From a virus (lineage: Duplodnaviria; Caudoviricetes), in IMG/VR virus record IMGVR_UViG_3300020576_003089, positions 11,233 to 75,232 of that record: a stretch of 64,000 nt of DNA; one strand, 5' to 3'. Shown in pieces: positions 6,639 to 63,994 of this stretch (positions are counted from its first letter, which is position 1; every line of letters begins with the position of its first letter). Made by a program: the position numbers and the translations under genes. The notes below the pieces were generated by a model. The model was not told the DNA's origin and did not search any database. It saw only the letters and a list, made by a program, of their open reading frames with translations.

Positions 6639-7174
6639 AATCTTTCTTGAACAATTCCTAATTTTTCTGAACGTGTATAATGAGCTGATACTATAATTGA
6701 TAATGAATTACCAAAATTGTTTGTATTATTTGAATATGAATATGAAGGGTCTTTACCTACAAATAATTGGTTTTCTACTATTGTGTCTATTTCATAATAA
6801 TCTTCATTCCATAAAATAACATCTCCTATTTCAGGTACTATATTATATGTAAATCCTTTTCCATCCTGGTTTAATTCTGTACTTAAGCTTAATCCAGCTA
6901 AATCATCTCTTAAAAATCTAAATTTAACATCTCTATTTATATCTACACCTTCTTCACCTGAACTAGCGTTTTGTTCTCCTCTATCAATTAAACAATTTAA
7001 TAATACAGGATCATTATATGTTTTTTTACCATTGCTTTCTCCATATATATTTGAATCAGTTTGTTCTAGTGATAATTTGTAAAATCCACACTTTTGTTCA
7101 ATTATATTATTTAATAGTTCTCTATTAATATGTCTTATAAATGATATGTCTCTATTTTCTCCGTATAAACTCAT
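6635..7174 (-). CDS. Head closure / neck protein (T4 gp14-like)
   Basis: ELLNNIIEQKCGFYKL...NIYGES...GDVILW...YEI pattern; synteny gp13-gp14-gp15. Confidence 0.65.
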   Translation of the reverse strand: MSLYGENRDISFIRHINRELLNNIIEQKCGFYKLSLEQTDSNIYGESNGKKTYNDPVLLNCLIDRGEQNASSGEEGVDINRDVKFRFLRDDLAGLSLSTELNQDGKGFTYNIVPEIGDVILWNEDYYEIDTIVENQLFVGKDPSYSYSNNTNNFGNSLSIIVSAHYTRSEKLGIVQERL

Positions 7175-7533
7175 TGTTGTGTTATTATTTGAGGATGTTC
7201 ATTATTTTCAAATTTAATATATTTAAAAGGTATAAATATATTATAATATTGATCATGATTAATAAAATTATTTTTGAATTTATAAACTTTAATTAAATTT
7301 TGACAATATTTATCTTGTTTTTCTTCTTGAGAACTAATAGGACATCTAAGTACGTTTTTATAGGTATTATTTTCTTCATCTAACTCTACATATCCAACAC
7401 AACCTGTATTTTTACTAAAAAATACATCATACATTATATATTCATTTTCTATATATTCCTCTAATTTAACAGTTGCAACTGGATTAGGATTATTTATCCC
7501 TAATTCATTTAATATATTTATTAACTTTATCAA
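7171..7533 (-). CDS. LNE-leader cassette protein
   Basis: Starts MIKLINILNELGINNP; ATGA overlap with neighbour. Confidence 0.75.
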   Translation of the reverse strand: MIKLINILNELGINNPNPVATVKLEEYIENEYIMYDVFFSKNTGCVGYVELDEENNTYKNVLRCPISSQEEKQDKYCQNLIKVYKFKNNFINHDQYYNIFIPFKYIKFENNEHPQIITQQ

Positions 7534-8111
7534 TATTCTCCTACTTTTTGAATTGTTTGAAATCTTGGTAAAAATTGAACTAAACCTTCTATTTTGTCAG
7601 TTACTAATGCTACTTTTTTTATTTTCTTAATATCTTCTTCAGGTGTAGTTGTTACCATATATTTTAATTTTAATAAAGAATATTCATGTTTATCTGTTGA
7701 TTGACTATCTAAATAATCATTTTGTTCTACTGATACTACTACTACTCCTGTTATTCCTCTAATAGAATTATAAACAAATACTTTATTTACATCATTTGTT
7801 ACCTTAATTAACACTTCAATCTTATAAATAATGTGTTGAACTTCATTTAATTTACCATTATCAAATATTGCGTTTATATAATATTCAGATGTACTTAATT
7901 CTCCCCAACTAAGTCCATTATCAATTAAATCTATAATGTCTTCTTTTGATCTACAATTTTCTAAATCTGCTAATATTCCATTATAATAATCATCATTACC
8001 AATATTTGATTTTTTTTCCTTTAATATTATTTGTCTAAATTTATCCTTCCAAGTCTTAAGTAATGGATTATTTATTTCAAGTTCGTTTAATATGTTTGTT
8101 AATTTTATCAT
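7530..8111 (-). CDS. LNE-leader cassette protein with second domain after an internal LNE
   Basis: Starts MIKLTNILNELEINNP; internal GKLNEVQ separates an acidic helical module from a beta-rich domain. Confidence 0.75.
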   Translation of the reverse strand: MIKLTNILNELEINNPLLKTWKDKFRQIILKEKKSNIGNDDYYNGILADLENCRSKEDIIDLIDNGLSWGELSTSEYYINAIFDNGKLNEVQHIIYKIEVLIKVTNDVNKVFVYNSIRGITGVVVVSVEQNDYLDSQSTDKHEYSLLKLKYMVTTTPEEDIKKIKKVALVTDKIEGLVQFLPRFQTIQKVGEY

Positions 8112-9287: not shown

Positions 9288-9292
9288 TTATT

Positions 9293-9300: not shown

Positions 9301-9308
9301 TAAATTAA

Positions 9309-10073: not shown

Positions 10074-11690
10074 TTATACTGTTTCTAATCCTTCAACGAA
10101 GATTCTTGCATAATAATCAGGTCTGATCATTTTCTTAGCATATCTTGTCATTAACCCTTTACGAGGAGTAAATGTGTTTGGATCATATAATAATGGAGTC
10201 ATTATTAATGGCACATAAGGAGCAAATACAGCACCACATTCTAAGAATTGTGAACCTTTGTAACCCATTAATATAACATTTTCAGTCATATATGGATTTT
10301 TGTACACTTTATAACGGCTGTTTAATTGACCTATTTTTTGTACTCCAAAGTTAAATGTATCTTTTTCACCATCTCCATCAGTTGCAAAACCAGGAATTGA
10401 TTCTAATACAGTGCATATTGCTGGAGAACATACCATGAAATTAGCACCACCTCTTAATGATAATTGGTGAATTTTATTAGATACTTTTTGTAATTTAGTA
10501 CCTAATGTTGAGAACCATCCACCTTGTGCATTATAATAACCACCTGTTGTAGCTGATTGTTGAGTAAACCCAGCACCATTCCATACATTGTTATTTCTTG
10601 CTGACCAATAATCAGTAGTAAATGCATTTTGGATTAACATATCTAACAATTCTAAATCAATTTCCATTGAAATATATTGAGATAAGATACCTGTTAATTC
10701 TGCTTCAGCATCAACACTTTGATAAGCATTTAAATCTTGAGCAAATTCAGGAGTCCATTGTGCTTTTAATTTACGAGTTTTAGCAACAATTGGTTCTGAT
10801 TTTAATTGAACATTAATTTCAGGAATAACAATTGGGTTAGCTTGAGATAAAGTACCTTCATTTTCAAAATCACCACGAGCTGCTGGAGTAGGTTGAACAC
10901 TATAGAACATAGTATAGTTAGCACCTGATGGTAAAACTGTAGCTACAGATGAACCAGTTATAATAAATACAAATGTACCATTAGTATTGTTATAAGTAGT
11001 AAATTGTTGTAAAATGTCTGATGCTACTACAAATGAACCAGTTGAAGCAACAAATGATCTAACAGCGTTTGCATCCATAGAAGCAGTAATAGCATTAGCT
11101 ACAATTGTAACTTTTTTCAATGATGCCGTGTTATAAGTTGAATCATAGTTAATATCAGCCCATGTTACAGAACCTGAAGTACCAGTTAAACCTGATGCTG
11201 TAAACGGATTAATTGAATAATTAAAACGTCCTGCTTCATATAATGAAGAAGTAGCATTTATATCTGTTACATTTGTTGTAGGATTAGCACTATAAAGAGA
11301 ATCACCTGCTCTAAATGGAGATATACTATTACCATATTTAAAATCTAAGTAAAATACTAGACCTGATGGTAAGTTCATTGGTTGAACAGAAATAAATTCT
11401 TTAGCTGCTATATCACCAAATACTCTACGTACTAATGGTAATGCTACACCAGCCCAGTTTTCAGAATTATAACCACCACCACTCATACTATTTGTACCAC
11501 CACCAACGTTGGTTTCTACAATTAATTGTTTAGCTTGGTTTTCAAGTAACATTGACATTGTGTTTCTTTCAGTGTCATTTCTTATACCTTCTAAAAGGCC
11601 AGATTTAACCCATTTTGAGGCTAATCTTTTTGAGTCTTCTTGAATCACTTTAAATGTGTTTGATGATTCAAGTAATTGTTGTATATTCAT
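10074..11690 (-). CDS. Major capsid protein (T4 gp23-like)
   Basis: KW..SGLLEG, MLLENQ, LVRR.FG.IAA....SVQPMNLPSGLVF, AKTRKLKAQWTPEFAQDL, AELTGILS..I..EID, APYVPL, KGLMTRY. Confidence 0.97.
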   Translation of the reverse strand: MNIQQLLESSNTFKVIQEDSKRLASKWVKSGLLEGIRNDTERNTMSMLLENQAKQLIVETNVGGGTNSMSGGGYNSENWAGVALPLVRRVFGDIAAKEFISVQPMNLPSGLVFYLDFKYGNSISPFRAGDSLYSANPTTNVTDINATSSLYEAGRFNYSINPFTASGLTGTSGSVTWADINYDSTYNTASLKKVTIVANAITASMDANAVRSFVASTGSFVVASDILQQFTTYNNTNGTFVFIITGSSVATVLPSGANYTMFYSVQPTPAARGDFENEGTLSQANPIVIPEINVQLKSEPIVAKTRKLKAQWTPEFAQDLNAYQSVDAEAELTGILSQYISMEIDLELLDMLIQNAFTTDYWSARNNNVWNGAGFTQQSATTGGYYNAQGGWFSTLGTKLQKVSNKIHQLSLRGGANFMVCSPAICTVLESIPGFATDGDGEKDTFNFGVQKIGQLNSRYKVYKNPYMTENVILMGYKGSQFLECGAVFAPYVPLIMTPLLYDPNTFTPRKGLMTRYAKKMIRPDYYARIFVEGLETV

Positions 11691-11727: not shown

Positions 11728-12771
11728 TTATTTAATACCTGCTAATACTTGCATTCTTAAAAGACTATCATTAACTTCTAAAATTGGTTTTCTTTGAGAC
11801 ATTCCTGCTGGTTTTGAAGCAAATCCTAAGTTTTCTTTTATAGTTGATTTTTTATTAGGATTAACAGGATTTAATATATTAGAATTTAAAGATTCAAATA
11901 TTAATTTAACTTCTTTTACATTAGTAGCTCTATCAAATGATGAAATAACTTTTAATTTTTGTCCTTCATTTAAATTTTTAGCTTTAAATATTTTATTTAC
12001 ATAAAGTAATTTAGCGTTTAATAAATTAATTTCATTAATTTCAGTACGTAAAACTTTAACAGCTTTATATGCTTCGTTTAATTTTCTTTTTAATATTTTA
12101 TTTTCATTTAAACCAGAATTTGAAACATTTGATGGTTGAACCATATCATCTAATTCTCTTAATATTTCATCAATATCAAATTCATCTTCATCTTCACTAC
12201 CAGGCATTCCACCACCTAAATCATCTCCCATGTTATCCATTCCCATTTCTCCACCTAAATCGTCTCCCATTCCACCATCTAAATCATCTCCCATTCCTAA
12301 ATCGTCTCCCATTTCTCCACCTAAATCTTCAGTTCCAGTACTCATTTCTTGACTTACTACTGATTGAATAAGTGTTGTAAATTCTTCAACTGTTAAATTT
12401 GATAATTTTTCATCTGATTTATCATCTTCATCTTTCTCTGAACCTGTTTTTTCTTTAGGTTTAGATGGTTTTGATGGTGATTTATCATCTGATTTTTTAT
12501 CTGATTTTTTGTCTTTATCTTTGTCATCATTATCATCTTCACTTTCATTTAAATCGTCTTCTAATTCTTGTAGGATTGAAGAAAGATCTACATCTTCTTC
12601 TAATTCGTCATTTCCGAATTCATCCATTTCATTTAATTTTCTAGACATCATTTTTTCAAGTTTAGGTTTTAATGTTTCTTCCAAAGCATTTTTAGCATTT
12701 ATTAATGCAGTTTCACGAATCATTTTTGCATCAGCAATTGCATCTTGCAATACATTATTGTTTTTTGACAT
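11728..12771 (-). CDS. Prohead scaffold / core protein (T4 gp22-like)
   Basis: Directly upstream of capsid gene; acidic, low complexity, coiled-coil C-half; many [IL]xE sites; ends LLRMQVLAGIK. Confidence 0.85.
   Translation of the reverse strand: MSKNNNVLQDAIADAKMIRETALINAKNALEETLKPKLEKMMSRKLNEMDEFGNDELEEDVDLSSILQELEDDLNESEDDNDDKDKDKKSDKKSDDKSPSKPSKPKEKTGSEKDEDDKSDEKLSNLTVEEFTTLIQSVVSQEMSTGTEDLGGEMGDDLGMGDDLDGGMGDDLGGEMGMDNMGDDLGGGMPGSEDEDEFDIDEILRELDDMVQPSNVSNSGLNENKILKRKLNEAYKAVKVLRTEINEINLLNAKLLYVNKIFKAKNLNEGQKLKVISSFDRATNVKEVKLIFESLNSNILNPVNPNKKSTIKENLGFASKPAGMSQRKPILEVNDSLLRMQVLAGIK
12214..12327. repeat. Imperfect tandem repeats encoding GDDLGG(E)M
   Basis: Repeated cctaaatc[ag]tctcccat units inside the scaffold gene. 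Confidence 0.75.
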
Positions 12772-12903: not shown

Positions 12904-12932
12904 AAAAAGAAACGTTTCTTTTTAGAAACGTT
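12904..12932 (-). terminator. Putative terminator / palindrome downstream of protease and cassette
   Basis: Minus strand AAACGTTTCT-AAAA-AGAAACGTTT-CTTTTT. Confidence 0.55.
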
Positions 12933-13192
12933 TAATTATTCATTATTTGTTTTAATTCTCTGTAAATTTTTTCTAAATCTGATTGAGAAAATAAATCAAA
13001 ATCATATGTTTCTAACCAATCATCACTAATATTATATTTTTTTATATATGGTTTACATATTTTTAAATATGAATTCCAATGATTGTTCCACTTAGGTATT
13101 GATATTGAATTCCAATACTCTTTTACCTTTGCTAAATTTATATTAGGATTATTAATGTCGAGTTCAGATATAAGAGACATTAACTTTAACAT
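12932..13192 (-). CDS. LNE-leader cassette protein (SQxDL module family)
   Basis: MLKLMSLISELDINNP (start moved to 13192); ends FSQSDLEKIYRELKQ. Confidence 0.75.
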   Translation of the reverse strand: MLKLMSLISELDINNPNINLAKVKEYWNSISIPKWNNHWNSYLKICKPYIKKYNISDDWLETYDFDLFSQSDLEKIYRELKQIMNN

Positions 13193-13803
13193 AATGCACA
13201 CACACCGGTTTGGTTACAAATAATATCTGTAATTATATTATTAATTTTACTATATTTAGTATCTGAAATATGATTTAAATTTTCATTTAATTTATATTGA
13301 TAAGCATTATTTGTAGATGGGGTTGAAACTAAATCAGCACATAATAAATCAAAATCATCTTGTACTTCTACAGTATTTTCACTTACTTGTTTAACGGAAC
13401 CCATTCCTCTAGTTGATATACCTAATGGAATATTATTAGATGCAATTTCTTGTGCTATTCTGCCTGATGGAGTATTTAGTAATTCTATTTCAGCCATTAC
13501 ATTATTACCTTCCCACCATATTTTAGTAATTAAATGAGAAACATTATTTAAATTAATAACTGATGAATCGGGATGATCTAATTCACCTAATGCTGTTCTA
13601 TTTTTAACAGGGCCTTCATTATATTTATTAAATTCTCTTTCTAATATAGCTTTAGGATATTTACGACCATTTCCATTTTCAGCCTCTGCTTCCTGTATTT
13701 TACCTCTAACACGCATACGACCATTTCCTCCAGCTTTAGATTCATTTATAGTTGAATCTATACTAAAGTTAAATGGGATTGTGTCTATTAATAATTCTTT
13801 CAT
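13186..13803 (-). CDS. Prohead core protease (T4 gp21-like)
   Basis: NGNGRKYPK, ALGELDHP, VSHLI, NTPSG, GISTRGMGS, DLVSTPS. Confidence 0.95.
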   Translation of the reverse strand: MKELLIDTIPFNFSIDSTINESKAGGNGRMRVRGKIQEAEAENGNGRKYPKAILEREFNKYNEGPVKNRTALGELDHPDSSVINLNNVSHLITKIWWEGNNVMAEIELLNTPSGRIAQEIASNNIPLGISTRGMGSVKQVSENTVEVQDDFDLLCADLVSTPSTNNAYQYKLNENLNHISDTKYSKINNIITDIICNQTGVCALC

Positions 13804-15203
13804 TATTTTTTAAATAATTTTTTAATTCGTCTTTTTATTTCTTGCATCATTTCAGAAGTTATCTTAGGAGATAATACATAAAATGTTTTAACACCATCTT
13901 CACCTTCATTACTAGATTCTACTTTAATATTAAATTTTGTTTCTAATTCACTTAATATATGTGTAGGTAATTCATCCCAATAATCATATTTTAAATAAAC
14001 TTTTAGATTTTTTTCAGTTAATCTAATATTTTGACATTCATCTGGACATTTAGTATCTATAAAATTTTGTACTTGATTTAATATTCCTTCATTACTAACT
14101 TCTAGTTCATTTACATTTTGACCTTGTTCAGCTTTTCTTCTTTTATATTCTGCATTTGGGTCATTGATTGCTAATTCATTTAAACCCTTAACTTTTTTCA
14201 TTTTACCACCTGTCATATCCATTACACCTTTAATACCTTTAGCTCTAACAGCTTTATGTGTTAAATCTTTAACTTTAATTTTAGGTGTAGTTTCTTTTTT
14301 AGCTTTATTAGCAGATGCTTTATCCTTTTCTACACCTTTAGGATTTTCCATTTTGTTTAACTTATCTGTTGTATTAGACATTTTTTTATCCATTTCAACT
14401 GGTAAATCAGTGCGTTTTTTAACTTCTGGTTCTATTTTTTTAATATCTCCACCTGCTAATAATAATTTAGTATAATAATAAGAATGTTTACTTAAATTAG
14501 ATTTAACTTTTTTCATCCATTTTTCAATAGTTCCTGTTGGATCAATTGATCTTTCATAACGCATTCCTATTTGTTGTTCTAAAGGATCTACTTCGTCTTT
14601 ACCTTCAATACCATTATATTTTGAATCTGAACCATCCCATTTAGAACCCATTGGTTTAAATTTAGGTTCTTTTATTTCACGTAATGTTTCATTATCAAAA
14701 TCAATTAATTCTAAATCAGCTATATAGTCATCTTCAATATCATAATCATCATCTTTATCTATTTTCCATTCATAATCATCTTCATCTTCATCTTCTTCTG
14801 GATTTTCATTTAAATCTACCCAATTAAAATCATCTTCAACCATATCTTCATTACCATATATGTCTAAATTACGTAATATTTCTAAATCTTCTTCACTAGG
14901 TGCTGCAGGTTCAATTGAATCATTATCTATTCTTAAAGAACGTTTTGGTATTCTGAGATTATCAGTATCAAAATCTATAGGATCATCATGTTCTTCATCT
15001 CTTGGAATTGCTTCATCTAATTGACTTTCACAATTACATCCTTCAGCTATTAAACTTTTGGCTTTAAATATTTTAATTGTATCTTCGAATGTATTTACAT
15101 TAGTAATATAATTAGGAAAAGTTCTACGTGCTTCACGTAAAAAATCTTTCTTACTTATTTTACCTTCTTGTAAATCAATACATAAGTTTGTTATATTTTT
15201 CAT
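13803..15203 (-). CDS. Acidic putative prohead core/internal protein with DUF5661-like segment
   Basis: Very acidic; VDPLEQQIGMRYE...NLSKHSYYYTKL; internal LNELAINDP and VNELEVSN. Confidence 0.6.
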   Translation of the reverse strand: MKNITNLCIDLQEGKISKKDFLREARRTFPNYITNVNTFEDTIKIFKAKSLIAEGCNCESQLDEAIPRDEEHDDPIDFDTDNLRIPKRSLRIDNDSIEPAAPSEEDLEILRNLDIYGNEDMVEDDFNWVDLNENPEEDEDEDDYEWKIDKDDDYDIEDDYIADLELIDFDNETLREIKEPKFKPMGSKWDGSDSKYNGIEGKDEVDPLEQQIGMRYERSIDPTGTIEKWMKKVKSNLSKHSYYYTKLLLAGGDIKKIEPEVKKRTDLPVEMDKKMSNTTDKLNKMENPKGVEKDKASANKAKKETTPKIKVKDLTHKAVRAKGIKGVMDMTGGKMKKVKGLNELAINDPNAEYKRRKAEQGQNVNELEVSNEGILNQVQNFIDTKCPDECQNIRLTEKNLKVYLKYDYWDELPTHILSELETKFNIKVESSNEGEDGVKTFYVLSPKITSEMMQEIKRRIKKLFKK

Positions 15204-15885: not shown

Positions 15886-17175
15886 TTATAATCCTTTGAT
15901 TTTATTGTTAAGTGTTTCCACTAATTCTTGTATTTTGTTAATTGATTGTTTTGTTTTATCCCAATATTGAACACCTTCTTCATTTTCACTTAATTCTTGT
16001 TTCATTCTATTCATATATTCAACAATTCTATCCACTTCTTGGAGTTTTGATTTAACTGTTTTGATACCTTTATGAAGCATTTCATTTTTACTTCTGAATT
16101 TTACTTCTTTTTTAAATTGACCATATGATGCTTCTTTTAATATCATGTTTTGAATAAGTTTATTAAGTTTTGATTCGTTTATATTATTACGTACTAACAA
16201 ATATGCTTTATATATTTGATTTTTATTATTTTCTAAATATGTTTTTAATTTTTGTATTGTACCATGTATGTTTCCTGATGTTAAATCTAAATTAAATTCT
16301 TTTGATATTAAACTAAATTTATCTGGATCTTTTACACATATTCTTAGTATATCTTGAATGCTTGGAATTTTATTTATACCTAATTCATTTATTGAATCTT
16401 GTTTAAATGAATTATAAGCACTGTTTCTCCAAGTCATTAAAATATTTCTAATATTTTTATCTTCAGGTAAAGCTGAAGCATTTGATACTTCAAACCATTT
16501 ATTTAATTCAACAGGTCTTTTATGTAGTATTGTATTTAATACTGAATCAGATGTGTTATTTGAAGCTCCAAATTCACCATGTTTATTAAGTAACATAGCT
16601 AAACGTTCAGCTGCTTTAGTTACTTCAGGTGTTTCTTCTATTTCGGATTCATATAAAGGAACATTCATGTCTTTATTCACATCAGTTTTGTTTGGATTTT
16701 GAATAACCCAACCATCACTTGATTTAGACATTATTAATGGTAAAGATAAAAAACCATTACCTAATACTTTTGTATTAGCAGCATATTTTTTAATTAAACC
16801 TCTAACTTGTTGTGGTACTCTTTCTTTTAAAAACAATGTTAATTTACCTAAACTTTGTTCTTTTGCAAATGAACTTCTACCTCTTTCAATATTATCTAAT
16901 GCTGTTTTAACTAATGGATCTATCATTAATATAGATTCACCTTTTGAATTAGTTGCTATTTTAAAATATATTTTTGGTTCTTGAGCAAATCCAAACCCAA
17001 TTGGTTTTAATAATGATTCTGGAAATTCAAATTCATTAGGAACAAAACGTCTGCCTTTTTTTAATGGTATAGCTTCTTTAAACAATTTTGGTGTTGCAGT
17101 AGTTTCTCCAGGACTAGTTATGTTCCCTTCTTCTTCAAGAATTTCTTTTAATATTTTTGCTATTATTTTACTCAT
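15886..17175 (-). CDS. Multi-module putative head-internal protein
   Basis: Amphipathic N-helix ending LKE/LEE; internal INELGINK and INESKLNKLIQNMILKEA; C-terminal coiled coil. Confidence 0.65.
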   Translation of the reverse strand: MSKIIAKILKEILEEEGNITSPGETTATPKLFKEAIPLKKGRRFVPNEFEFPESLLKPIGFGFAQEPKIYFKIATNSKGESILMIDPLVKTALDNIERGRSSFAKEQSLGKLTLFLKERVPQQVRGLIKKYAANTKVLGNGFLSLPLIMSKSSDGWVIQNPNKTDVNKDMNVPLYESEIEETPEVTKAAERLAMLLNKHGEFGASNNTSDSVLNTILHKRPVELNKWFEVSNASALPEDKNIRNILMTWRNSAYNSFKQDSINELGINKIPSIQDILRICVKDPDKFSLISKEFNLDLTSGNIHGTIQKLKTYLENNKNQIYKAYLLVRNNINESKLNKLIQNMILKEASYGQFKKEVKFRSKNEMLHKGIKTVKSKLQEVDRIVEYMNRMKQELSENEEGVQYWDKTKQSINKIQELVETLNNKIKGL

Positions 17176-21641: not shown

Positions 21642-21998
21642 TTATAAGTTAGTTCCAGTTGGTTCATAATAATAAAGATCTTTTCCATTTATATTTATTT
21701 TACTCCAATCAGCTAAATCAGCATCTTGAATATCTTGTTCTGTAGGTTCATGATCTATTAAACAAATTGAATCTACTGCTTCACCTATCCAAACTTGACC
21801 ATTTTCACCTTGAAATACTTCTTCATATCTCATATCCTCAGGATATTCATCTTCACCTATTATTTCATTTACAATTTTTTTTCTATTCAGTTTTATGAAA
21901 TTTAATAAATCTCTAGGATCATTAATAGTTATTTCGTTTAATGGACGAATACCTGCTAATTGCTGCATTCTATGTATTTCGTTTATTTGTTTTTTCAT
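21642..21998 (-). CDS. Cassette protein with RMQQLAGI and LNE leader
   Basis: MKKQINEIHRMQQLAGIRPLNEITINDP. Confidence 0.75.
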   Translation of the reverse strand: MKKQINEIHRMQQLAGIRPLNEITINDPRDLLNFIKLNRKKIVNEIIGEDEYPEDMRYEEVFQGENGQVWIGEAVDSICLIDHEPTEQDIQDADLADWSKININGKDLYYYEPTGTNL

Positions 21999-52900: not shown

Positions 52901-53815
52901 TTTAATTTTATTATAAAAATTATTTAAACGTTTTTCAGCAGAACTAAATCTAATAAAATTTTCATAACTACTACTATAATTAACATTTATTTCTATTTCA
53001 GCTAAATTTATTTTATTTAAAATAGATTGAATAGATGAACCACTATAATTAGATAATAATGAGTTAGTAGATTCATACTTAGTAGGAGTAGTATTTTTTA
53101 TATCTAATTCAAGGTCAAAATTAGGACCTCTTAAGTTAGGTAAAGGATCAGCTAAAGTTTCACTAGTTAATATTAAATCAAAAATTGTAGAATTTGATAT
53201 TTCTTCTACAATACATAATGTACTATTTATATTTATATCATTAGATAAAGGTTCATATAATTTTACTAATATAAATCCATTATCCCAAGCAATATTTGTT
53301 ATTAATTTTACATTATTATTACCAAAATTTAATAAATATGGTTTTAAATAAGGTACTAAATTTTTATCATTATTTAATTTATTAAATTGATCTTGTAAAT
53401 TATTTATATTAACAGAAGATATTTTTAATTCAGTTCTGTCAGGTGATATTTCTTTTATAAATAATTCTAAATCTTGAGGATTTGAAATCCATTTTTTAAA
53501 AAAATTATATTGAGTTTTAAATTCACCAATTTCATAATATTGTTGTAAATCAAATAATGGATTTATTTCTAATGTTGAATATGTAGAATTATTGTTTAAT
53601 GAAGAACCTTGAGATGGTAACTTATATAAATTATAATTATAATCTAAATTTAATAAATTTAAAGCAGCATCATATATAATATATTCAATATAATCTACAT
53701 TTGGATTAAAATTATTAATTACATTTTGAGTACCAATTAGTAATACATCATTTTGATTAAAACGATTTATATCATTTGATAATTCTATATTTCCTTTAAA
53801 TATTATTTGTGGCAT
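49901..53815 (-). CDS. Large baseplate wedge protein (gp7/P2 gpI-like domain)
   Basis: 1304 aa; FIDMIGHYFD...RIYHNIPLLFKGKGS...ELITTFGI...IKEYGG. Confidence 0.65.
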   Translation of the reverse strand: MPQIIFKGNIELSNDINRFNQNDVLLIGTQNVINNFNPNVDYIEYIIYDAALNLLNLDYNYNLYKLPSQGSSLNNNSTYSTLEINPLFDLQQYYEIGEFKTQYNFFKKWISNPQDLELFIKEISPDRTELKISSVNINNLQDQFNKLNNDKNLVPYLKPYLLNFGNNNVKLITNIAWDNGFILVKLYEPLSNDININSTLCIVEEISNSTIFDLILTSETLADPLPNLRGPNFDLELDIKNTTPTKYESTNSLLSNYSGSSIQSILNKINLAEIEINVNYSSSYENFIRFSSAEKRLNNFYNKIKQIEDYNTFITQYSGSIQPNILVQVGQYSSSINDIIIKFDGYENYLYFNSGSSTWPKSNINPPYVLESTGSINTLTWFSSSIDSSIYYDNNNPNKLSDAIPEYIAIDENNEPYINFIDMIGHYFDNIWIYIKSITDYYKSYNNVDNGISKDLVFFALQDLGIKLYNTKEDDDLYNYIIGNNGVLSSQQLIAELYKRIYHNIPLLFKGKGSYKTIQELITTFGITGSILNIKEYGGNSNTEASLLDYSSNKIRIIDNSVYTASYGSILHPKIKLADDVYENYKNDDSRVDIAFSPQYPIDLIISASITSSNPNFSIDDYLGDPRYEISSSYYSLDQIRASAISSSFTTKYDIRGFIELSQCFDNTLFKMVKDYLPFKSNLSEGIIIKQQALERIKWKRNLPNIDNQTMYEASYSTASLNSDYDNFYYYLQNTKEPYYNGEISGSNKDLYGEFFIPNNFNPYALSSSLNLSLFQHSDYNVLLNNISASRLSNVRRKIEIQPYSSQNILVPTEIQDSNYYDTGLNRSRYNGTKLISALYNTYTDGDTSFGKSSTIDIIKNNVSYFTNIKQSSLLLANVSQLKLKYLINEQNNVLDLNNQNNNIVDIQNIFKSGENITISYFDSSGSIKPSNTNIEIYKGGYGIDTVLYNLGSSGYQNFELPNASDTIVSASYDLITSASITGIYLASYTIYQNGVLHSITGSSITNDLLPYVVTSNLFVFVSHSVYPTTKYHKLVNGNSELLANIQISASSPGPSSYAVASYDFVLGGSPHPIFGLNIDSSSFSLQGTHETNYCKHGGSIYMSTGYATGEEWLFPNGFTNYYQNSGSLPWKAAGSNRIVVFPKLISDNYGTFRYNTNLNTNVFDINYTNFTIDKGDKFLVYPIDYAIGLSANTQYHDRTYIFKEYNIINVYFTPFLGDNYLTIVVDQDLPNFTTGLPYNTDDKKYIPYYAVQKIVPDETSILLKSTNFSDSENQGIVYPQYVNEKLKVKSGDIIKNLKSQNLI

Positions 53816-54368
53816 ATTTTTTAACTAATTGTTTCATTTCATTATATAATTTGTTTAAATCTGATTGAGATAATTTTTGGTAATCATCTTTATACTTTGG
53901 GTTAGAAATATTATATTTATTTCTTATTTTTACATATCCTTCCCAACCTTTAGTACTTACACCAAATTCATTGTAATTATCCCAAATGTTTTGGATAAAA
54001 TAATCATATACTTCTTCAGCAGTTTTATTAGGATTATCAATTTCTAATTCAGCTAATACATCATCATCATTATCTGGATTGTATGGTAAATTGTATTTTT
54101 TAACTAATTGTTTTAATTCTCTATAAAATTTATTTAAATCGGGTTGAGATAATTTTTTAAAATTAGTTTTATCAAGACCATAGAACCATTGTTTTTGTGA
54201 ATAATAATTTTCAATCTTTTCATATTCTTCCCAACCTTTACTACCAGCACCAAATTCATTGTCATTATACAATATATTATTTCTATAATAATCATATACT
54301 TCTTCCCAAGATGGATTAGGATTGTTTATCTCAAGTTCGTTGATTATATTTAATAGTTTAATTTGCAT
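53796..54368 (-). CDS. LNE-leader protein with two tandem paralogous SQxDL modules
   Basis: IINELEINNP and LAELEIDNP, each followed by EEVYDY...KGWE.Y...LSQ.DLNK.Y.E.KQLVKKY. Confidence 0.8.
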   Translation of the reverse strand: MQIKLLNIINELEINNPNPSWEEVYDYYRNNILYNDNEFGAGSKGWEEYEKIENYYSQKQWFYGLDKTNFKKLSQPDLNKFYRELKQLVKKYNLPYNPDNDDDVLAELEIDNPNKTAEEVYDYFIQNIWDNYNEFGVSTKGWEGYVKIRNKYNISNPKYKDDYQKLSQSDLNKLYNEMKQLVKKYATNNI

Positions 54369-54705
54369 TTTTTACTTCGGTATTTAAATCAGATAATGTT
54401 TTTGCATCTTCTAACATTTGAATTTTAAGACTTGTTATTTCATCTAATAATGCTTGAACAGATTCATCATCTGCTAATTTAACTCCTAGATATTCTATAG
54501 TTTTATTTAAAATATAATTATGTGAATTAGTATCTCCTTCTTTTTGAATTTGATAAAATAATTCATCATAATATTCAAAAAATTTATCTATTGTAATAAT
54601 ATTAACATCTTGAATATTTTGTTGATTAAATGTTTTAAATTCAGTATCAATTACTTTAGAGTAATTATTTCCTAATGTTTGTGTTTGTATTTTAATGTTA
54701 CTCAT
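54358..54705 (-). CDS. Hypothetical structural protein
   Basis: 115 aa in baseplate cluster. Confidence 0.55.
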   Translation of the reverse strand: MSNIKIQTQTLGNNYSKVIDTEFKTFNQQNIQDVNIITIDKFFEYYDELFYQIQKEGDTNSHNYILNKTIEYLGVKLADDESVQALLDEITSLKIQMLEDAKTLSDLNTEVKNAN

Positions 54706-55012
54706 ATTGTTTTCTTAATTTAAGTAATTTTAACATTTGTGTATAAAGTGGAGTTACATCTTTTATAGGATAAATTGAAAAATCACCATTAAAATAAAGT
54801 CTATTAAATTTATATTGATTATGAAATGTATAAAGGTCCTGTATAAATTCATTATATAAAAAAATCCATTCATTTCTTTGATCATTATTCCATCCTCCAC
54901 CAATATCAAAATTACTTCTTTTAGTTAATTCTTTCCAAGCTTTATTAATAATTTTATAATTTATAGGATTATTAATTTCCAACTCATTAATTAATTGTGT
55001 TAATTTTATCAT
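54698..55012 (-). CDS. LNE-leader cassette protein
   Basis: MIKLTQLINELEINNP. Confidence 0.75.
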   Translation of the reverse strand: MIKLTQLINELEINNPINYKIINKAWKELTKRSNFDIGGGWNNDQRNEWIFLYNEFIQDLYTFHNQYKFNRLYFNGDFSIYPIKDVTPLYTQMLKLLKLRKQYE

Positions 55013-56207: not shown

Positions 56208-56606
56208 TTAAAACTTATGGCTATTTAAAGCTAAATCTTCACATTCTTCTTCTGTTAAACCCCATACATCACCTTCATCATAAATATAATCGGTATCAAA
56301 TAATGCTGTAACGAATGAACCAGATGATCCGTATGGTAAATCCTCTTTATCTATACCTTTAATCCAATTCTTAAAATTAGACCAATTCATAAATTCTTCA
56401 TTTGCTTTACCCAATTTACTAAGTTCTTTAATTATTATATCAGCTAAACCATTGAAATATTTTTTAGCATATCTTTGTTGAATTAATGGATCTAATTTAT
56501 TTAAAATATGGTAATAGTTTTTAACATATTTAATAAACCCTTCTTTAGTGGGTTCGTTTGGATTTTTTACTTCTAACTCATTTAATAATTGTAATAGTTT
56601 AATCAT
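56208..56606 (-). CDS. LNE-leader cassette protein
   Basis: MIKLLQLLNELEVKNP. Confidence 0.75.
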   Translation of the reverse strand: MIKLLQLLNELEVKNPNEPTKEGFIKYVKNYYHILNKLDPLIQQRYAKKYFNGLADIIIKELSKLGKANEEFMNWSNFKNWIKGIDKEDLPYGSSGSFVTALFDTDYIYDEGDVWGLTEEECEDLALNSHKF

Positions 56607-57170: not shown

Positions 57171-57473
57171 TTAATCATTTTCAATTAAATTTTGTCTAAT
57201 AAGATTAATATGAGCTCCTAATTCTTTTATATCTTTAACAGTTTGTGCTAAGTCTTTAGTTATTTTTTTAGCTAAGTTTTTAACATGTTCATTAGATGCT
57301 CCTTTAAATTTAGTCATATTACTATATACCTTATATATATTATTCATGTCTTTATTAAAACTTTCCATGTTGTATACTGTATTGGAAATTTTACCAGTAA
57401 TTGGGTCTACTTCATCAGGACCTAAAACATGTCCTTGTTTTATAAAATCATCTATGTTTAATTTATTTGCCAT
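57171..57473 (-). CDS. Hypothetical protein
   Basis: 100-aa ORF; ends LIEND. Confidence 0.6.
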   Translation of the reverse strand: MANKLNIDDFIKQGHVLGPDEVDPITGKISNTVYNMESFNKDMNNIYKVYSNMTKFKGASNEHVKNLAKKITKDLAQTVKDIKELGAHINLIRQNLIEND

Positions 57474-57951
57474 ATGTATCTAATTGTTTTAATTCTTTAT
57501 ATAATTTATTTAAGTCTTGTTGGGATAAATTCTTTACAAATGATGGTATACTTCCACCCTTAAGATTATACTTAAGATTATATTTTGGATCGTTATCATA
57601 TTTTTTAAATACTTTTTCATATAATTCATCCCAATGATAATCCTGTCTTAAATAACAATACATAGCCCAAACTCTCTTCCAATCTTTGTTTGGATTTTCA
57701 ACTTCTAATTCATTAATTTCTTCTTTATAAGGTTTAATCCATTTATTTTTTAAATAATATTTTTTGTTTACACCTATATTTCCTGTATTTGTTTTAAAAT
57801 ATATACTCCCAGTATTCGAATATTCATTTTCAAATTCTAGAATTTCCCATTTATTCCATGTATCATTCCATACTTTATATTTATTACCTGGTATTAATTT
57901 ATTTGGTTCGTTTATACCCAATTCATTAAGTAATTGTGTTAATTTAATCAT
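57463..57951 (-). CDS. LNE-leader protein with two modules
   Basis: MIKLTQLLNELGINEP (start moved to 57951); INELEVENP; second module ends LSQQDLNKLYKELKQL. Confidence 0.8.
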   Translation of the reverse strand: MIKLTQLLNELGINEPNKLIPGNKYKVWNDTWNKWEILEFENEYSNTGSIYFKTNTGNIGVNKKYYLKNKWIKPYKEEINELEVENPNKDWKRVWAMYCYLRQDYHWDELYEKVFKKYDNDPKYNLKYNLKGGSIPSFVKNLSQQDLNKLYKELKQLDTYGK

Positions 57952-59768
57952 ATTGATGAACAACGTCCTTTAATATCATCATCCATATATTTAATTTCAA
58001 ATATGCTAGGATCTAATGATGGATAAACAATATTATTTCTAGTAGCTGCAACTATATCATAACCATATTGTGAATAAGTACCACCTTGTTTATTAATAAT
58101 TTTAATGTTTTGTACTGATTGTACTTCTCTTACTTTAAGTAATAGTGAATATATATCTGCTATTACTATAGGTTGACCAATACTCCATTTATCGATTGAA
58201 AAATATTCTTTTAACGCGTTTATACAACTGTTTATAGCTTGTCTATTAGATACTTGAGGAATTGAAATAATGTCAAATTCAACGCCTATATTAATTGTAA
58301 AAGCATTTTTAATATTAATTGCATCAGTAGCCATTCTATAATTATTAAGATATGTTACTAAATTTTGTTTTAATGTAGTAGAAGCTTGGGTTAAATTTTT
58401 ATTTGAATCATAGCCTAATATATATAAATCAATTGCATTATAATTTATACTATTATCAGATAATACTTGATTTGTATTTTCTAAATAACATTTAGAAATA
58501 ACTCCTAATTCACTAGGCATTGATAATGTTCTATTAATATAATCTTCTTTAGTAACAACTCTATTTTGAGATGAAAATGAGTTTAATGTATTTAATCTAA
58601 TTTCATTAACAGTGTCAGCACCTCGTCCTCCTGTTGAAGGTTCATTATTATTAAATATTAAATTAGTAAATAAATTTTGTTGTAAAGGGTCATTTATATC
58701 TTTAACTATATTATTAAATGATACATCTGAGTTACTTAATGTAAATGATTTTTGATTTATATTATTTGAAGCAATATTTGAAACTATTCCTCCTCCTACT
58801 AAATATGTTACTGTTAAAGTCATATTTGATGGAGCTACACCATATTCTTGAGCTATAAATGTATTTGCTTTATTATAATTATTAGTAGGATTAAAAATAT
58901 GAGGATTAATACCTAATTGAGCTGTATTTGGATTAGGTAATAATACTGAATCAGAAGATACTGAAGTGCCTGAACCAAATTGTAATTGTAAAGTTTCATT
59001 ATCAATAAATCTACTAACAAATCTACGAGGTGTATGTAAATAACTTAACACATATGGGGCTGAACCACTATCAGCACTATTGTTTAATGAGTTAATATTA
59101 ATAAAACTTTGAGCTAAATATGGAACTTCATACCAAGTATCATCATTACTATCTGTAACTTCTAATATTTGCAATATGTTAGAATCAGCTATATTAACAC
59201 TATCAAATTTTACTGGAGATGTAAATGTAAAAGTTGCTGTTTTTATTTCAGCTGAAATTGCTTTAACCTTAGTTTCTAATAAAAAATAATTTGCATCATA
59301 ATAACTAGAAGTTGTATTATAAATATTAGTAAAATCAATATTTTCAGTAGTAATAAAATTAATTCCATTAGTACTATTTATTGAAACATTTGGATTAATT
59401 TTAAAAGCATAATCATAATCTGGTAATAATGAACCAGAAACAGTCTTATTAGGTACTAATTGAAATACACTTAATTCAGTATTTGAGGCATAAGACATTT
59501 TAGGTCTATAACCTAATGTATATGCTATATTAACTATATTGTTTAATTCTTTAGTATAAGTTAGTTGATTTTCTTGTGTTTGTGTATCTAAATAAAACGA
59601 TAAATTATCACCAACATAAGATGCTAATTCTATAAACATCATTCCTATTGATGCTTCTGAATAATCATTGTATGATGCAGGAAAGTATGTTTTAGCATAA
59701 TCCTGCAATGAGCTACGAAAAGATTCGAAATTACGGTTAAGATATGTTATATTTCTAATATTATTCAT
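57948..59768 (-). CDS. Baseplate wedge protein (T4 gp6 / baseplate J-like)
   Basis: FESFRSSL...ELASYVGDNLSFYLD; TGGRGADTVNEIR; QNRVVTKEDY. Confidence 0.88.
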   Translation of the reverse strand: MNNIRNITYLNRNFESFRSSLQDYAKTYFPASYNDYSEASIGMMFIELASYVGDNLSFYLDTQTQENQLTYTKELNNIVNIAYTLGYRPKMSYASNTELSVFQLVPNKTVSGSLLPDYDYAFKINPNVSINSTNGINFITTENIDFTNIYNTTSSYYDANYFLLETKVKAISAEIKTATFTFTSPVKFDSVNIADSNILQILEVTDSNDDTWYEVPYLAQSFININSLNNSADSGSAPYVLSYLHTPRRFVSRFIDNETLQLQFGSGTSVSSDSVLLPNPNTAQLGINPHIFNPTNNYNKANTFIAQEYGVAPSNMTLTVTYLVGGGIVSNIASNNINQKSFTLSNSDVSFNNIVKDINDPLQQNLFTNLIFNNNEPSTGGRGADTVNEIRLNTLNSFSSQNRVVTKEDYINRTLSMPSELGVISKCYLENTNQVLSDNSINYNAIDLYILGYDSNKNLTQASTTLKQNLVTYLNNYRMATDAINIKNAFTINIGVEFDIISIPQVSNRQAINSCINALKEYFSIDKWSIGQPIVIADIYSLLLKVREVQSVQNIKIINKQGGTYSQYGYDIVAATRNNIVYPSLDPSIFEIKYMDDDIKGRCSSI

Positions 59769-59804
59769 TTATCCCTAATTCATTTAATATGTCTAATAAT
59801 TTTA

Positions 59805-60218
59805 TCATTGTTCAAAATTAATTGAAATATTATCATTTTCCTGTGTTAATTTAATACTATAATCAAGTAAAAACGTTAACATATTATTATCAGGGTTAGA
59901 TGATATTTCTATTTTATTAATAACTATATCAGGAAAATAAGCTTTAACTAAAAATTTAATATCCTCTACAGTTGTTTCATAATTATCATCAATTAATTGA
60001 TTAAATAATTGTTTTCTAAGGTCAGTTCCAAAATTTGGATTAAATAATCTTTCACCTTTATTAGTTAATAATAAATTAATTAAATTATATTTAATCTGTT
60101 CTTTATGACTATATGTAGTTCTGAACGCTGATGGAACACTAAAAGGAATAGCTATACCCACTCCAATATTTGGATTTAACACATTTGGATTAACTTGAAA
60201 TGTTTGTGTTATGGGCAT
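59805..60218 (-). CDS. Baseplate gp25-like sheath initiator
   Basis: QIKYNLINLLLTNKGERLFNPNFGTDL. Confidence 0.9.
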   Translation of the reverse strand: MPITQTFQVNPNVLNPNIGVGIAIPFSVPSAFRTTYSHKEQIKYNLINLLLTNKGERLFNPNFGTDLRKQLFNQLIDDNYETTVEDIKFLVKAYFPDIVINKIEISSNPDNNMLTFLLDYSIKLTQENDNISINFEQ

Positions 60219-61744
60219 TATTTTATTATTTTATATTTTAATAAAAAATTGATAGTTACATCTATACTACTACTATCCTTTAATAATTCTAATAATCTAT
60301 CTTCAATATATTTTTTATTAAATTTTTTATTTATAGGTAAATTTAATGTTTCAATAGCTGATATAAACATTTTAAACATTGATGGATTATCATTACTTTC
60401 TTTTTTTAATGCTTCTAAATCCCAATCTTCTTTTTTATTTCCAATATAAAAAGGTTTATTTACTCCTAATTCATTAATCAATTTAGTAATTTCATTATCA
60501 TTATCTATAGGTTCTATTTTTTTATTAGTTTGTTTTTTTAAATATGATTCTATATTCCATATTATACTACTATCTAATCTAGAACCTATTTTTAACTTTT
60601 CTTCTCCTTTTAAATTAAGTTCTTTTTTTCTAAAACTTACATTTATACCATTAATAGGTTGATCTAATGTTAATACACATTTATTAATATATGTATATAA
60701 TTTATCATTCCATGAATATTTTCTTTCTTCTGTATTATCATATTTAATATTACCTTTATTATATATTTTATTTTGATTTTTATCTATCATATCAAAATAT
60801 ACAACATTATTTCTTAAACCAGTTATTTTAAATTCAATTGATCCATATGAGGGTAATGAATCAGATACTTGTTTATTATTTACTCTTTTATCTTTTTGAT
60901 TATTTATATTTATATCTTTAAAATATATAATTTTTTGACTAGGTGTTAACACACACCAAGTTGTACCATTACTATAAAATATTAAATTATCAATTTTTAA
61001 ATAAATAAAATAACCTGTACTTAATATATAGCCACCTCCTCGATAAGATGAATATATGTTAGATTCTAAATTAGATTTAAAAAAAGCTCCTGATATTAAA
61101 CGCATATTTTTTAATTCTATTTTTAATGAATTACATATGAGTTTTATTTTATTATGAGCCATTCTTCCTATATAATAATCATCTGTATAATCATTTAATT
61201 CATCTGTGGTAATATCTTTAGTAATTATATATGATCTATTAGGTTTAATAAACTTATTTAATAAATTACCGTATCTACCTTTATTAAATTTTATTATTCT
61301 TTCTAAATTTGAAATAAAAGTAGATCTATCTATATCATCAGGTAAGGTCCAAGATCCTATATTTCTTTTATGAGCAATTTGATCTAAGGATGTTATTGAA
61401 GGATTATTAATTCCTAATTCGTTTATTATAGGACGACTTTTAGTAAAACCATCAAAATTAACATATTTTCCATCAAATTTAACTTCTTTATCTTCTACTT
61501 TAAAGGGTATATTATGTCTTTTTAAATATTCTATAGCTGCTCTAGCTTCTATACTATCTGTTCCTTCTGGGTATCTTGTATAAAATTTATCATTGGGTGC
61601 ATACCAATAACCACCATAATGAAAATTATGGTAATCTTTTTCATCATCTTTAAAATAAAACCATGACTCATTTTGTTTATAAGGTTTTATTTTATTAGGA
61701 TTATTGATTTCCAATTCTGATATGAGAGACATTAATTTAACCAT
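60218..61744 (-). CDS. Three-module LNE-linked polyprotein
   Basis: MVKLMSLISELEINNP; IINELGINNP; LINELGVNKP. Confidence 0.78.
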   Translation of the reverse strand: MVKLMSLISELEINNPNKIKPYKQNESWFYFKDDEKDYHNFHYGGYWYAPNDKFYTRYPEGTDSIEARAAIEYLKRHNIPFKVEDKEVKFDGKYVNFDGFTKSRPIINELGINNPSITSLDQIAHKRNIGSWTLPDDIDRSTFISNLERIIKFNKGRYGNLLNKFIKPNRSYIITKDITTDELNDYTDDYYIGRMAHNKIKLICNSLKIELKNMRLISGAFFKSNLESNIYSSYRGGGYILSTGYFIYLKIDNLIFYSNGTTWCVLTPSQKIIYFKDININNQKDKRVNNKQVSDSLPSYGSIEFKITGLRNNVVYFDMIDKNQNKIYNKGNIKYDNTEERKYSWNDKLYTYINKCVLTLDQPINGINVSFRKKELNLKGEEKLKIGSRLDSSIIWNIESYLKKQTNKKIEPIDNDNEITKLINELGVNKPFYIGNKKEDWDLEALKKESNDNPSMFKMFISAIETLNLPINKKFNKKYIEDRLLELLKDSSSIDVTINFLLKYKIIK

Positions 61745-62072: not shown

Positions 62073-62084
62073 TATATATAAATA

Positions 62085-62987
62085 TTAAGGTTTTAAATTA
62101 TTTTGTTCAATTTGAAAAATAAGTTGATCAATTAACACTTGAGTATCTAATGTAAAAGATACATCGGTTTTAAGTACTTCAACATTATTGGTATCTATAG
62201 CTACAGCATAGTGACGTTTAAATCCGCTAACTATTGGTGATCCAGGTGTTGTTTCCTCTTTAATAGCAAATTTAAATCCATTATATGTTACCGGAGATAA
62301 TCCAATTTGAACTTGTTGTTTTAAAATATCTTCAAATTCTGGTAATGTTTGTGTTTGATTACTTTGTTGAATTATTTTATTTTCAATTTTATTTTCAATC
62401 AATTTAATTTGAGATTTTAGTTCTACCAAATCTACTTTAATTTGATTTAATTCAGCTTCTATTAAATTAATTGTAGATTTAAATGCTGTAATAGTTTTGT
62501 TAGCTTTTTCTAATAAACTACTAAGAGTATTAATCAACCCAGCAGTAACACCAGGTGTTAATGTGGGTAATGGAAGAGCTTTTAATGTTATTGTTATAGT
62601 TTGAAAAATAGTTACAACTGTTTTTAATTGATTTAAAATTTTATTAATAGAATCTATTTTCTTTTCAACTGAATTTATTTGATTTAATAAAGCATTTTTA
62701 CGATTAATTAAACTTTGTTTATCCCCAATTTGAGTATTATTAAAATTATCTATATCATCATTTAATTGTTCAATATCATTGTCTAAATTAGAAAATATAT
62801 TTCCTATATCAACTATTTTTTGAAGCATCAATTCAGATGCCATAGGTAAAAATAACAAAGCTGGATCCTTACCTAAACTTTTTAATCGTTTGGTTTTAGC
62901 TTTTTGTTTATCTTTATTAATTTTTTTAATAAAGTTTTTATTTTTTAAAGTCTGTTTTGCTAGTGCTATATCTTGTAGTTTAGTCAT
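62085..62987 (-). CDS. Coiled-coil hypothetical, probably virion-associated
   Basis: 300 aa with long heptad stretches. Confidence 0.6.
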   Translation of the reverse strand: MTKLQDIALAKQTLKNKNFIKKINKDKQKAKTKRLKSLGKDPALLFLPMASELMLQKIVDIGNIFSNLDNDIEQLNDDIDNFNNTQIGDKQSLINRKNALLNQINSVEKKIDSINKILNQLKTVVTIFQTITITLKALPLPTLTPGVTAGLINTLSSLLEKANKTITAFKSTINLIEAELNQIKVDLVELKSQIKLIENKIENKIIQQSNQTQTLPEFEDILKQQVQIGLSPVTYNGFKFAIKEETTPGSPIVSGFKRHYAVAIDTNNVEVLKTDVSFTLDTQVLIDQLIFQIEQNNLKP

Positions 62988-63994
62988 TATACATCATAAG
63001 TTATGTAATAAAATTTTAAACCCTTTATATTAAATTCTTTAATATCTATTATTTCATCATCATTAATATTAAAATATTTCTCATCAATTGAAGCTTCCCA
63101 ACCTATCTCAAATTCAGAAAAATTTAAATATACTACATTTGCTTCTTTTTCCCCACTCCAATCACCTAATTCAAATTTTATATCTGTTTCAGGATTAAAA
63201 TTATCATAATATGATAAGACTAAGTCTCCATATCGTTTTTTTAATAATGTATTCCAAACTTCTGTTTTATTTTTATTTAATTTGTAAAACAAATTAGAAT
63301 TAGGTTCAGGTTTATTTATTTCTAATTCATTTATACGATCACCATGATCATAATTAGATATAACTTCTTCTAAAACTTCTTCTATAAAGGGTTCTACAAT
63401 AATTGGAGCATACATATCATCAAAATTATTATCCCATCTAAAAAATGATTTAATTCCTTCATCTATATCATAAATTGGCCAATTATATTTTTTAATATAT
63501 TGATATATATCCTTTTTTATTTTACTTATATTTACATTTTCAAAATATTTTTTCCATAATTTATTTTTAACATCTTTTAACATGTTCAAATTAAAATATT
63601 CTTCAGCCATATCATCATCAAATTGATCATGATCAAATTGATCATCATTATACATTATATTTTTAATATTATCATAATATTCAGGTAAATATTGCCATAT
63701 ATCTTCATCAATATTAGTAACATGTTTTTCTAACCATTGAATAAAATATTCATTAAAATACATATTAATTTCTTTCATAATGTTAGAATCAAATTGGAAA
63801 TGTTTATTTATTTCTAATTCATTTAAACTAACAAAATTTTTAAAGTCATCTAATAAGTGATGGTAAGTTAAATATTCATAGTTTTCAGGTTCTATTTCTA
63901 TTGTTTTAATATATTCTTGAATTTTATTTTGATGTTGTGGAAATTTATCTAATAATATTTGTCCTATTTCATTCATTTCAACAAATCTATTCAT
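62987..63994 (-). CDS. LNE-linked multi-module protein, possibly 5'-truncated by the window
   Basis: SLNELEINK and RINELEINKP; frame stays open to base 64000. Confidence 0.7.
   Translation of the reverse strand: MNRFVEMNEIGQILLDKFPQHQNKIQEYIKTIEIEPENYEYLTYHHLLDDFKNFVSLNELEINKHFQFDSNIMKEINMYFNEYFIQWLEKHVTNIDEDIWQYLPEYYDNIKNIMYNDDQFDHDQFDDDMAEEYFNLNMLKDVKNKLWKKYFENVNISKIKKDIYQYIKKYNWPIYDIDEGIKSFFRWDNNFDDMYAPIIVEPFIEEVLEEVISNYDHGDRINELEINKPEPNSNLFYKLNKNKTEVWNTLLKKRYGDLVLSYYDNFNPETDIKFELGDWSGEKEANVVYLNFSEFEIGWEASIDEKYFNINDDEIIDIKEFNIKGLKFYYITYDV

Follow-up and report, generated by a model that had tools for sequence, protein, structure and literature searches.

A candidate capsid-targeting and processing tag on variable, modular proteins of an uncultured T4-like phage

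The capsid-targeted proteins of phage T4 are a handful in number, and some of them disarm host defences upon injection. Mutagenesis of their tag has assigned targeting to residues 4 and 7 and processing to residues 8 and 10 (PMC9026906). The T4 prohead protease, gp21, cleaves after L/I-x-E and also cuts the scaffold into pieces (PMC9026906). Literature searches on capsid-targeting tags and prohead-protease propeptides turned up no account of such leader families outside T4 and the giant phages. The present study concerns a 64,000-nucleotide stretch of viral DNA, hereafter the window (IMG/VR record IMGVR_UViG_3300020576_003089, positions 11,233 to 75,232), in which many otherwise variable proteins begin with one shared leader, M-I-K-L-x-x-I/L-[LI]-N-E followed by L-[EG]-[IV]-N-[NK]-P (LEINNP for short), and in which the second part of the same motif recurs inside proteins as a junction between modules. 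This motif is probably a capsid-targeting and processing tag of the T4 type, spread here over dozens of cargo modules and into polyproteins.

The T4 capsid-targeting sequence is carried by the internal proteins IPI, IPII and IPIII and by the propeptides of Alt, and is removed by gp21. The system of the window shares with it an N-terminal tag of about ten residues ending in L/I-x-E, hydrophobic positions 4 and 7, the cut-site residues 8 and 10, a protease of the S77 family, a T4-like order of head genes, and small cargo proteins that are diverse and change fast, the tag being their only conserved part (PMC9026906, PMC3012670). It differs in the number of tagged modules, which is in the dozens rather than a handful, in the reuse of the cut-site half within proteins to give polyproteins, in six extra conserved residues past the cut, in the fixation of Asn at position P2 (the middle residue of the tripeptide) in tag, scaffold and protease alike, and in the coexistence of several tag families. 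What the two systems have in common is a pattern, with no demonstrable sequence homology, ten residues being too few for a homology test.

Two further systems invite comparison. In the giant phages phiKZ, 201phi2-1 and SPN3US, many head proteins are cut after Glu, some of them at several sites (PMC9026906, PMC10052503). The cutter is a diverged gp21-like protease, whereas the sites are S/A-x-E or A-x-E and the propeptides are mostly 111–254 residues long, with no shared portable leader described. Polyvalent proteins carry 2 to 15 distinct domains per polypeptide (Iyer, Burroughs, Anand, de Souza, Aravind 2017; PMC5512222); they are multi-module proteins in a late-gene setting, and their proposed fate is delivery together with the DNA and processing into separate units (PMC5512222). 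The 900-residue protein of the window, with at least six modules, and its 508-residue protein, with three, resemble them. In contrast to the polyvalent proteins, however, a single type of junction, corresponding to the head protease site, links the modules of the window, the signature domains of polyvalent proteins were not found by Pfam, and a zincin is suggested only by HExxH motifs.

The window makes up the majority of an IMG/VR contig of 75,232 bp that is rated 47% complete, and the source phage is, as its genes indicate, a distant T4-like myovirus, uncultured and found in fresh water and wastewater. Its gp23-like major capsid protein (10074..11690) shares 57% identity with its counterpart in Flavobacterium phage vB_FspM_immuto (hereafter immuto), the nearest isolate, 48% with the one in Microcystis phage Mel-JY01 and 37% with the one in Rhodothermus phage RM378. 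The gene order terminase, portal, protease, scaffold, capsid protein, PhoH and gp13-like neck protein is the same in immuto, and baseplate gp6-like, gp25-like and lysozyme genes are located further along the contig. Every long open reading frame (ORF) of the window lies on the minus strand, as do all genes described below; the single positions by which a first-pass annotation of the window had named its ORFs are the low ends of these minus-strand frames.

A two-part motif under selection as a peptide

That first-pass annotation had proposed a window-wide family of ORFs sharing a leader, and the family is real: a six-frame regular-expression search and a hidden Markov model of the leader match only the coding frames of minus-strand genes. 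As claimed, the length of the leader is ten residues and its last three are [LI]-x-E. We count 12 canonical leaders, four variants, one leader stub of 15 codons and, inside proteins, 16 strict copies and a few weaker ones. The canonical leaders start at 7533, 8111, 13192, 28368, 37523, 46724, 49904, 54368, 55012, 56606, 57951 and 61744, and in all 12 genes the start overlaps the upstream stop or lies at most 12 nucleotides from it. Each of the four variants (in the genes with low ends 22366, 25993, 28373 and 36710) has [LI]-x-E inside its first 14 residues. When the nine-residue core was written as a degenerate DNA pattern and run over the 75-kb contig, 23 matches fell on the coding strand and none on the opposite strand; a reversed control pattern gave no match.

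The anatomy of the motif was determined by pooling distinct copies, 88 of them N-terminal and 66 internal, from the window phage and its relatives, and it is divided into two parts. Positions 1–7 are strongly conserved in the N-terminal copies (M, I, K, L, then T/I/L, Q/N/D and I/L), with L4 in 99% and I/L7 in 100% of them, and are at background in the internal copies (0.3–0.9 bits), so that M-I-K-L-x-x-I/L is confined to N-termini. Residues 8–16 ([LI]-N-E and L-[EG]-[IV]-N-[NK]-P) are common to leaders and internal junctions; among leaders, L/I occupies position 8 in 99% and E position 10 in 100%, the conservation at positions 8–16 being partly imposed by the search pattern.

Selection on this motif acts at the level of the peptide. 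Among 12 canonical leaders of the contig (9 in the window and 3 upstream), pairs of codons for the same residue differ in 36.8% of cases, against 29.1% expected under genome codon usage, and identity falls from 0.73 within the leader to the background values of 0.34 and 0.38 in the 30 nucleotides upstream and downstream. Saturation at synonymous sites, together with flanks no more similar than background, leaves no room for a promoter, an RNA element or a recent gene conversion as the cause of the repeat.

An AlphaFold model of the protein 53796..54368, built from 16 sequences (mean predicted local distance difference test score, pLDDT, 76.6), contains two confident helical domains, and both the leader (residues 1–16) and the junction (residues 96–111) have pLDDT below 50; in the model they look like exposed, flexible segments. 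Three other readings of the peptide were considered and rejected. Ribosome skipping of the 2A type needs a C-terminal N-P-G-P, whereas here the residues past N-[NK]-P vary and include no conserved Gly-Pro, and the nascent chain is only 16 residues long in the N-terminal copies. In Asn-Pro self-cleavage of the N-P-T-H type, the residue preceding Pro would be Asn, which is not invariant at that position here. A ClpS N-degron, created by the Leu exposed by cutting, was set aside as ClpS is not present in the Bacteroides control genome; an acidic second residue is also a poor fit for a ClpS degron.

The leader is restricted to a narrow clade, and no isolate bears it. Apart from the source contig, one additional IMG/VR contig and nine short contigs from Joint Genome Institute metagenomes bear it, and a profile search of 1.84 billion protein representatives returned 71 clusters, in 68 of which the best match begins at residues 1–3 (at residues 21, 75 and 90 in the remaining three). 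A leader with the LEINNP junction was not found in the immuto genome, and a tblastn search with a 190-residue leader protein against 50,697 phage records gave no match. In diverged relatives the tag is shortened to nine residues ending in L-L-E, and the Pro is partly lost. DNA near-identical to the head region of the window is present in aquatic, riverine, sludge and wastewater sequencing runs (20 rows from 13 studies, with at least half of the sampled words in 9 of the 20; four runs were mapped onto the window).

The prohead protease and its candidate sites

The first-pass annotation had also placed a gp21-like protease in the window, which is borne out by both profile and structure comparison. 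The gene 13186..13803 encodes a prohead protease of the T4 gp21 family: it matches Pfam Peptidase_S77 (PF03420) with an E-value of 2.4e-27 and the head maturation protease family phrog_207, and it aligns to the T4 gp21 structure PDB 5JBL with an E-value of 7.6e-15. At two positions that are Ala in the crystallised T4 protein, it has His and Ser, which we take to be the catalytic residues. The protease itself contains I-N-E at residues 19–21 and L-N-E at residues 172–174.

The scaffold (11728..12771; 50% identical to the immuto scaffold), the classic substrate of such a protease, contains six [LI]-N-E sites, whereas 0.51 are expected from shuffled sequences (p<5e-5), an excess of about 12-fold. 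The scaffold of a diverged relative that has the leader (L032) likewise carries six against 0.56 expected (p=5e-5), in contrast to the scaffold of immuto, which lacks the leader and carries one against 0.52 expected (p=0.41). Where immuto has Q, Q, T and T at P2, in three corresponding sites of the scaffold and the N-terminal one of the protease, the window phage has N. Because the sites of scaffold and protease match it, the tripeptide of the leader is the one that this lineage has fixed in known substrates of the protease. This correspondence is the strongest evidence that the tag would be cut, and the system makes a definite prediction of protease specificity that can be tested, namely Asn at P2. 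Three further points suggest a T4-type system: L4, I/L7, L/I8 and E10 coincide with the targeting and processing positions of T4; the internal copies retain just the processing half, which fits cut sites within polyproteins; and a leader gene (12932..13192, leader plus domain A, a helical module described below) stands between protease and scaffold, its start overlapping the end of the protease gene. As a side observation, the N-terminus of the capsid protein, M-N-I-Q-Q-L-L-E, resembles the nine-residue variant of the leader that ends in L-L-E.

These elements can be assembled into a mechanism, of which binding to the core, cutting, packaging and ejection are the steps that we infer. Residues 1–7, found only at N-termini, would most likely bind the prohead core, so that the protein is built into the procapsid. 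The prohead protease would then cut after the Glu of [LI]-N-E (residues 8–10), so that each mature module would begin with the flexible segment L-[EG]-[IV]-N-[NK]-P (residues 11–16), which probably serves as a hinge and caps a helix. The internal copies, which consist of residues 8–16 only, may serve as cut sites that divide polyproteins, inside the head, into modules with a median length of 110 residues. If the T4 internal proteins and Alt are a guide, the cargo would be ejected with the DNA.

Several findings weigh against this scheme. The six residues after the proposed cut are as conserved as the cut site, a fact for which cutting by itself gives no reason. One half of the modules is acidic, unlike the basic T4 IPII and IPIII, and several cargo genes adjoin replication genes (primase, exonuclease) instead of late genes, so that late expression is not established for every cargo gene. 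HExxH motifs occur in two junction-bearing proteins, at residue 624 (module 5) of 40781..43483 and at residue 29 (the DUF5661 module) of 35842..36720; another protease could therefore be the cutter. Furthermore, the comparison of sites across phages covers three lineages, two of which are related. The RNA-library contigs that span two leader genes are uninformative on transcription or timing.

The conservation past the cut also bears on a suggestion of the first-pass annotation, that LEINNP might serve in recognition by the protease. This suggestion is weakened, as LEINNP follows none of the six scaffold and two protease [LI]-N-E sites and can thus be no general requirement of the protease; the loss of part of it in diverged relatives points the same way. 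In an alternative that we regard as unlikely, the leader is never cut and instead forms a docking helix and hinge that attaches variable domains to a common partner (a site on the virion surface, a chaperone or an oligomer hub) and serves as a standard linker in multi-domain proteins. The predicted structure of the leader is indeed a short amphipathic helix with an Asn-Pro cap after it, the conservation beyond the putative cut equals that of the cut site, and many cassettes are located between tail and baseplate genes. An uncut helix, however, leaves two facts unexplained: its core is the very tripeptide that is over-represented in the scaffold and present at both ends of the protease, and the hydrophobic positions 1–7 are absent from internal copies. 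The match with the scaffold and the internal loss of residues 1–7 count for a processing tag and against this docking helix.

It is less likely still that the cutting or modification is the work of a different enzyme, either a zincin-type peptidase borne by the cargo itself or an enzyme acting as on RiPPs (ribosomally synthesized and post-translationally modified peptides) and encoded in the missing half of the genome. A zincin domain has been proposed to process polyvalent proteins (PMC5512222), and the HExxH motifs above could belong to small zincin peptidases. ESM Atlas searches with two modules returned only a weak lead to Peptidase_M78 and no usable family, and the contig is just 47% complete. 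On the other hand, most tagged proteins have no peptidase module, no radical S-adenosylmethionine gene is present on the 47%-complete contig, and the enrichment in the scaffold links the tripeptide to the head protease.

Cargo modules, polyproteins and their turnover

Most of the proteins behind the leaders and between the junctions, here called payloads, lack BLAST similarity to one another. The exception is the subfamily of domain A, a helical domain of about 85 residues that is the commonest first module, ends in a junction of its own and has 47 relatives among 5.8 billion proteins searched; its model had no Foldseek match with an E-value below 2 in PDB or BFVD. Pfam and PHROGs searches of about 30 tagged or neighbouring proteins identified only DUF5661 and WYL_2 as cargo families, and the 900-residue protein 40781..43483 matched neither database.

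The recurrence of domain A raises the alternative that the leader is the conserved N-terminus of a single old paralogous family, with no function of its own. The domain A payload is a true family and the commonest partner of the leader, and single-linkage clustering of payloads by profile matches merged all of them into one cluster through the shared junctions and domain A. Common descent of this kind is nonetheless very improbable, given that most payloads have no similarity to each other, that the same junction is found between unrelated modules, and that purifying selection maintains the leader while its synonymous sites are saturated.

Modules are interchanged between the two settings of the motif. 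The payload of 7530..8111 follows its own N-terminal leader in the window and lies behind domain A and a junction in a relative (L028); conversely, modules of 35842..36720 and 40781..43483 occur elsewhere as stand-alone leader proteins (P0074 and P0102). A cut site would predict such interchange, since the mature module is the same by either route. A bolder version of the tag, which we consider rather doubtful as a whole, is that the junction is a portable 'cut here' joint that moves modules between stand-alone genes and polyproteins, that L-[EG]-[IV]-N-[NK]-P is a second, post-cut signal, and that, together with the R-M-Q-x-L-A-G-I motif described below, these amount to a multi-address cargo system more elaborate than that of T4. 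A post-cut signal might hold the module with the DNA, order its exit through the portal, or act in the next host cell.

Cassettes also turn over: among relatives they vary at the same junctions between conserved structural genes. A block of 98% identity with one relative (L012) stops about 50 nucleotides into 7171..7533, directly after the leader, where the payload is replaced. At 59766..59810 an orphan leader stub, 15 codons long and closed by a stop, overlaps the beginning of the gp6-like baseplate gene, and in another relative (L025) this position is occupied by a full cassette of 126 residues. A 5.3-kb DNA contig from an aquatic metagenome (run X4) has a 704-nucleotide insert at the junction of 5796..6638 and 6635..7174. 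Homologues in immuto were found for 3 of the 26 motif proteins, all partial, and for 38 of the 68 other proteins (p=1.3e-4), and no protein with an assigned part in the tail, the neck, the capsid shell, packaging or replication had the motif. The cargo is accessory and fast-evolving.

The least probable reading, a DNA-level element such as a recombination handle or the end of a mobile cassette, translated only incidentally, could draw on the exchange breakpoints at or just after leaders (the L012 block), the stub at 59766-59810, an 8-nucleotide duplication within the junction at 35845 and the X4 insert at the 6638/6652 gene junction, but it is refuted as a primary cause by saturated synonymous sites, flanks at background identity and a pattern that occurs only in frame on the coding strand, and recombination at leaders is more plausibly a side effect of the conserved peptide.

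If the tag is indeed of the T4 type, an abundant lineage of freshwater and wastewater phages devotes about a fifth of its coding capacity to tagged cargo, and the shuffling of that cargo as cassettes and polyproteins would expose a large unexplored pool of injected early effectors. A short tag combined with a short cleavable joint could also serve to load foreign proteins into capsids.

Eight of the tagged genes are leader genes as follows: 7171..7533, which has a TTG start; 7530..8111; 27970..28368, with the nine-residue form of the tag; 37239..37523; 46386..46724, which has an orthologue in L027; 49620..49904, whose start overlaps the stop of the upstream gene for a 1304-residue protein (ATGA); 54698..55012; and 56208..56606, which adjoins the lysozyme gene. 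Internal junctions are added in 57463..57951 (one junction; its start and the stop of the baseplate gp6-like gene likewise share an ATGA), in 60218..61744 (two junctions dividing the 508-residue protein into its three modules) and in the modelled protein 53796..54368, in which leader and domain A are followed by a weak junction and a second domain A. The variants are 22366..22788, with I-K-E at residues 8–10; 25993..27960, a 655-residue protein; 28373..29467, in which a short leader ending in L-L-E precedes the usual six residues; and 36710..37246, which carries a WYL_2 domain.

Among the proteins with junctions, the largest is 40781..43483, whose six internal junctions delimit its modules, the last of which opens with domain A. 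The DUF5661 protein 35842..36720 has two junctions, the first preceded by Q-Q-L-A-C-I, and is followed by 35573..35845, a junction and module separated from it by a stop and a frame shift. Single junctions occur in 13803..15203, an acidic protein of 466 residues beside the protease gene, and, in junction-like form, in 15886..17175, a head-module protein of 429 residues with an excess of [LI]-x-E; the 335-residue protein 62987..63994 has one strict and one weaker junction.

The break between 35842..36720 and 35573..35845 coincides with an 8-nucleotide tandem duplication (TTAAATGA / TTAAACGA) at 35819-35860, within the junction, which leaves a stop after the first gene and puts the second out of frame; a split gene, a gene in decay and an error of assembly are all possible explanations. 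In the X4 contig, a stretch of 110 letters is replaced just downstream of the leader of 7530..8111 (window 7957-8065). Genes or remnants of GIY-YIG-like homing endonucleases, recognised by their N-terminal motifs, lie near cassettes at 45249-45935, 45950-46408, 31982-32803 and 25371-25508, and at 2145-2891 in L028; they may contribute to cassette mobility.

Other leader and address families

A further short motif connects the scaffold with the cargo. The scaffold (11728-12771) ends in R-M-Q-V-L-A-G-I-K, and R-x-Q-x-L-A-G-I opens or precedes cargo modules in 23107-23739, 21642-21998, 33451-33918, 33922-34386 and 35842-36720, standing directly before a junction in three cases. Two of these genes begin with R-M-Q-Q-L-A-G-I as a leader, followed directly by a junction in 23107..23739 and by a junction-like site in 21642..21998. 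The motif is also present in the immuto scaffold and in two other immuto proteins. Judged by this resemblance, it looks like a second address that mimics the tail of the scaffold.

In immuto, several families of proteins share N-terminal leaders in which [LI]-x-E closes the conserved part or lies close to its end; they are unannotated in the record and constitute an observation of this analysis. Leaders of the R-M-Q-x-L-A-G-I and M-K-K-S-x-L types occur in both phages, whereas immuto has no LEINNP junction and its scaffold no preference for Asn at P2. The habit of [LI]-x-E leaders is consequently broader than the LEINNP tag. The titles and abstracts of the immuto papers found in a literature search make no mention of virion proteomics, and the analogous leaders of this cultured phage mean that the idea can be tested at the bench now.

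The third leader family, M-K/R-K-S-x-L-x-x-I-I-K-E, is represented in the window by 32876-33403 and in immuto by genes at 102294, 102880, 113188 and 123355 (L029 and W01 coordinates). Another family, M-E-N-F-D-L-K-K-F-L-V-E, is found in immuto only, in five genes. As in the window phage, the immuto gene between protease and scaffold bears a leader, which is of its own type.

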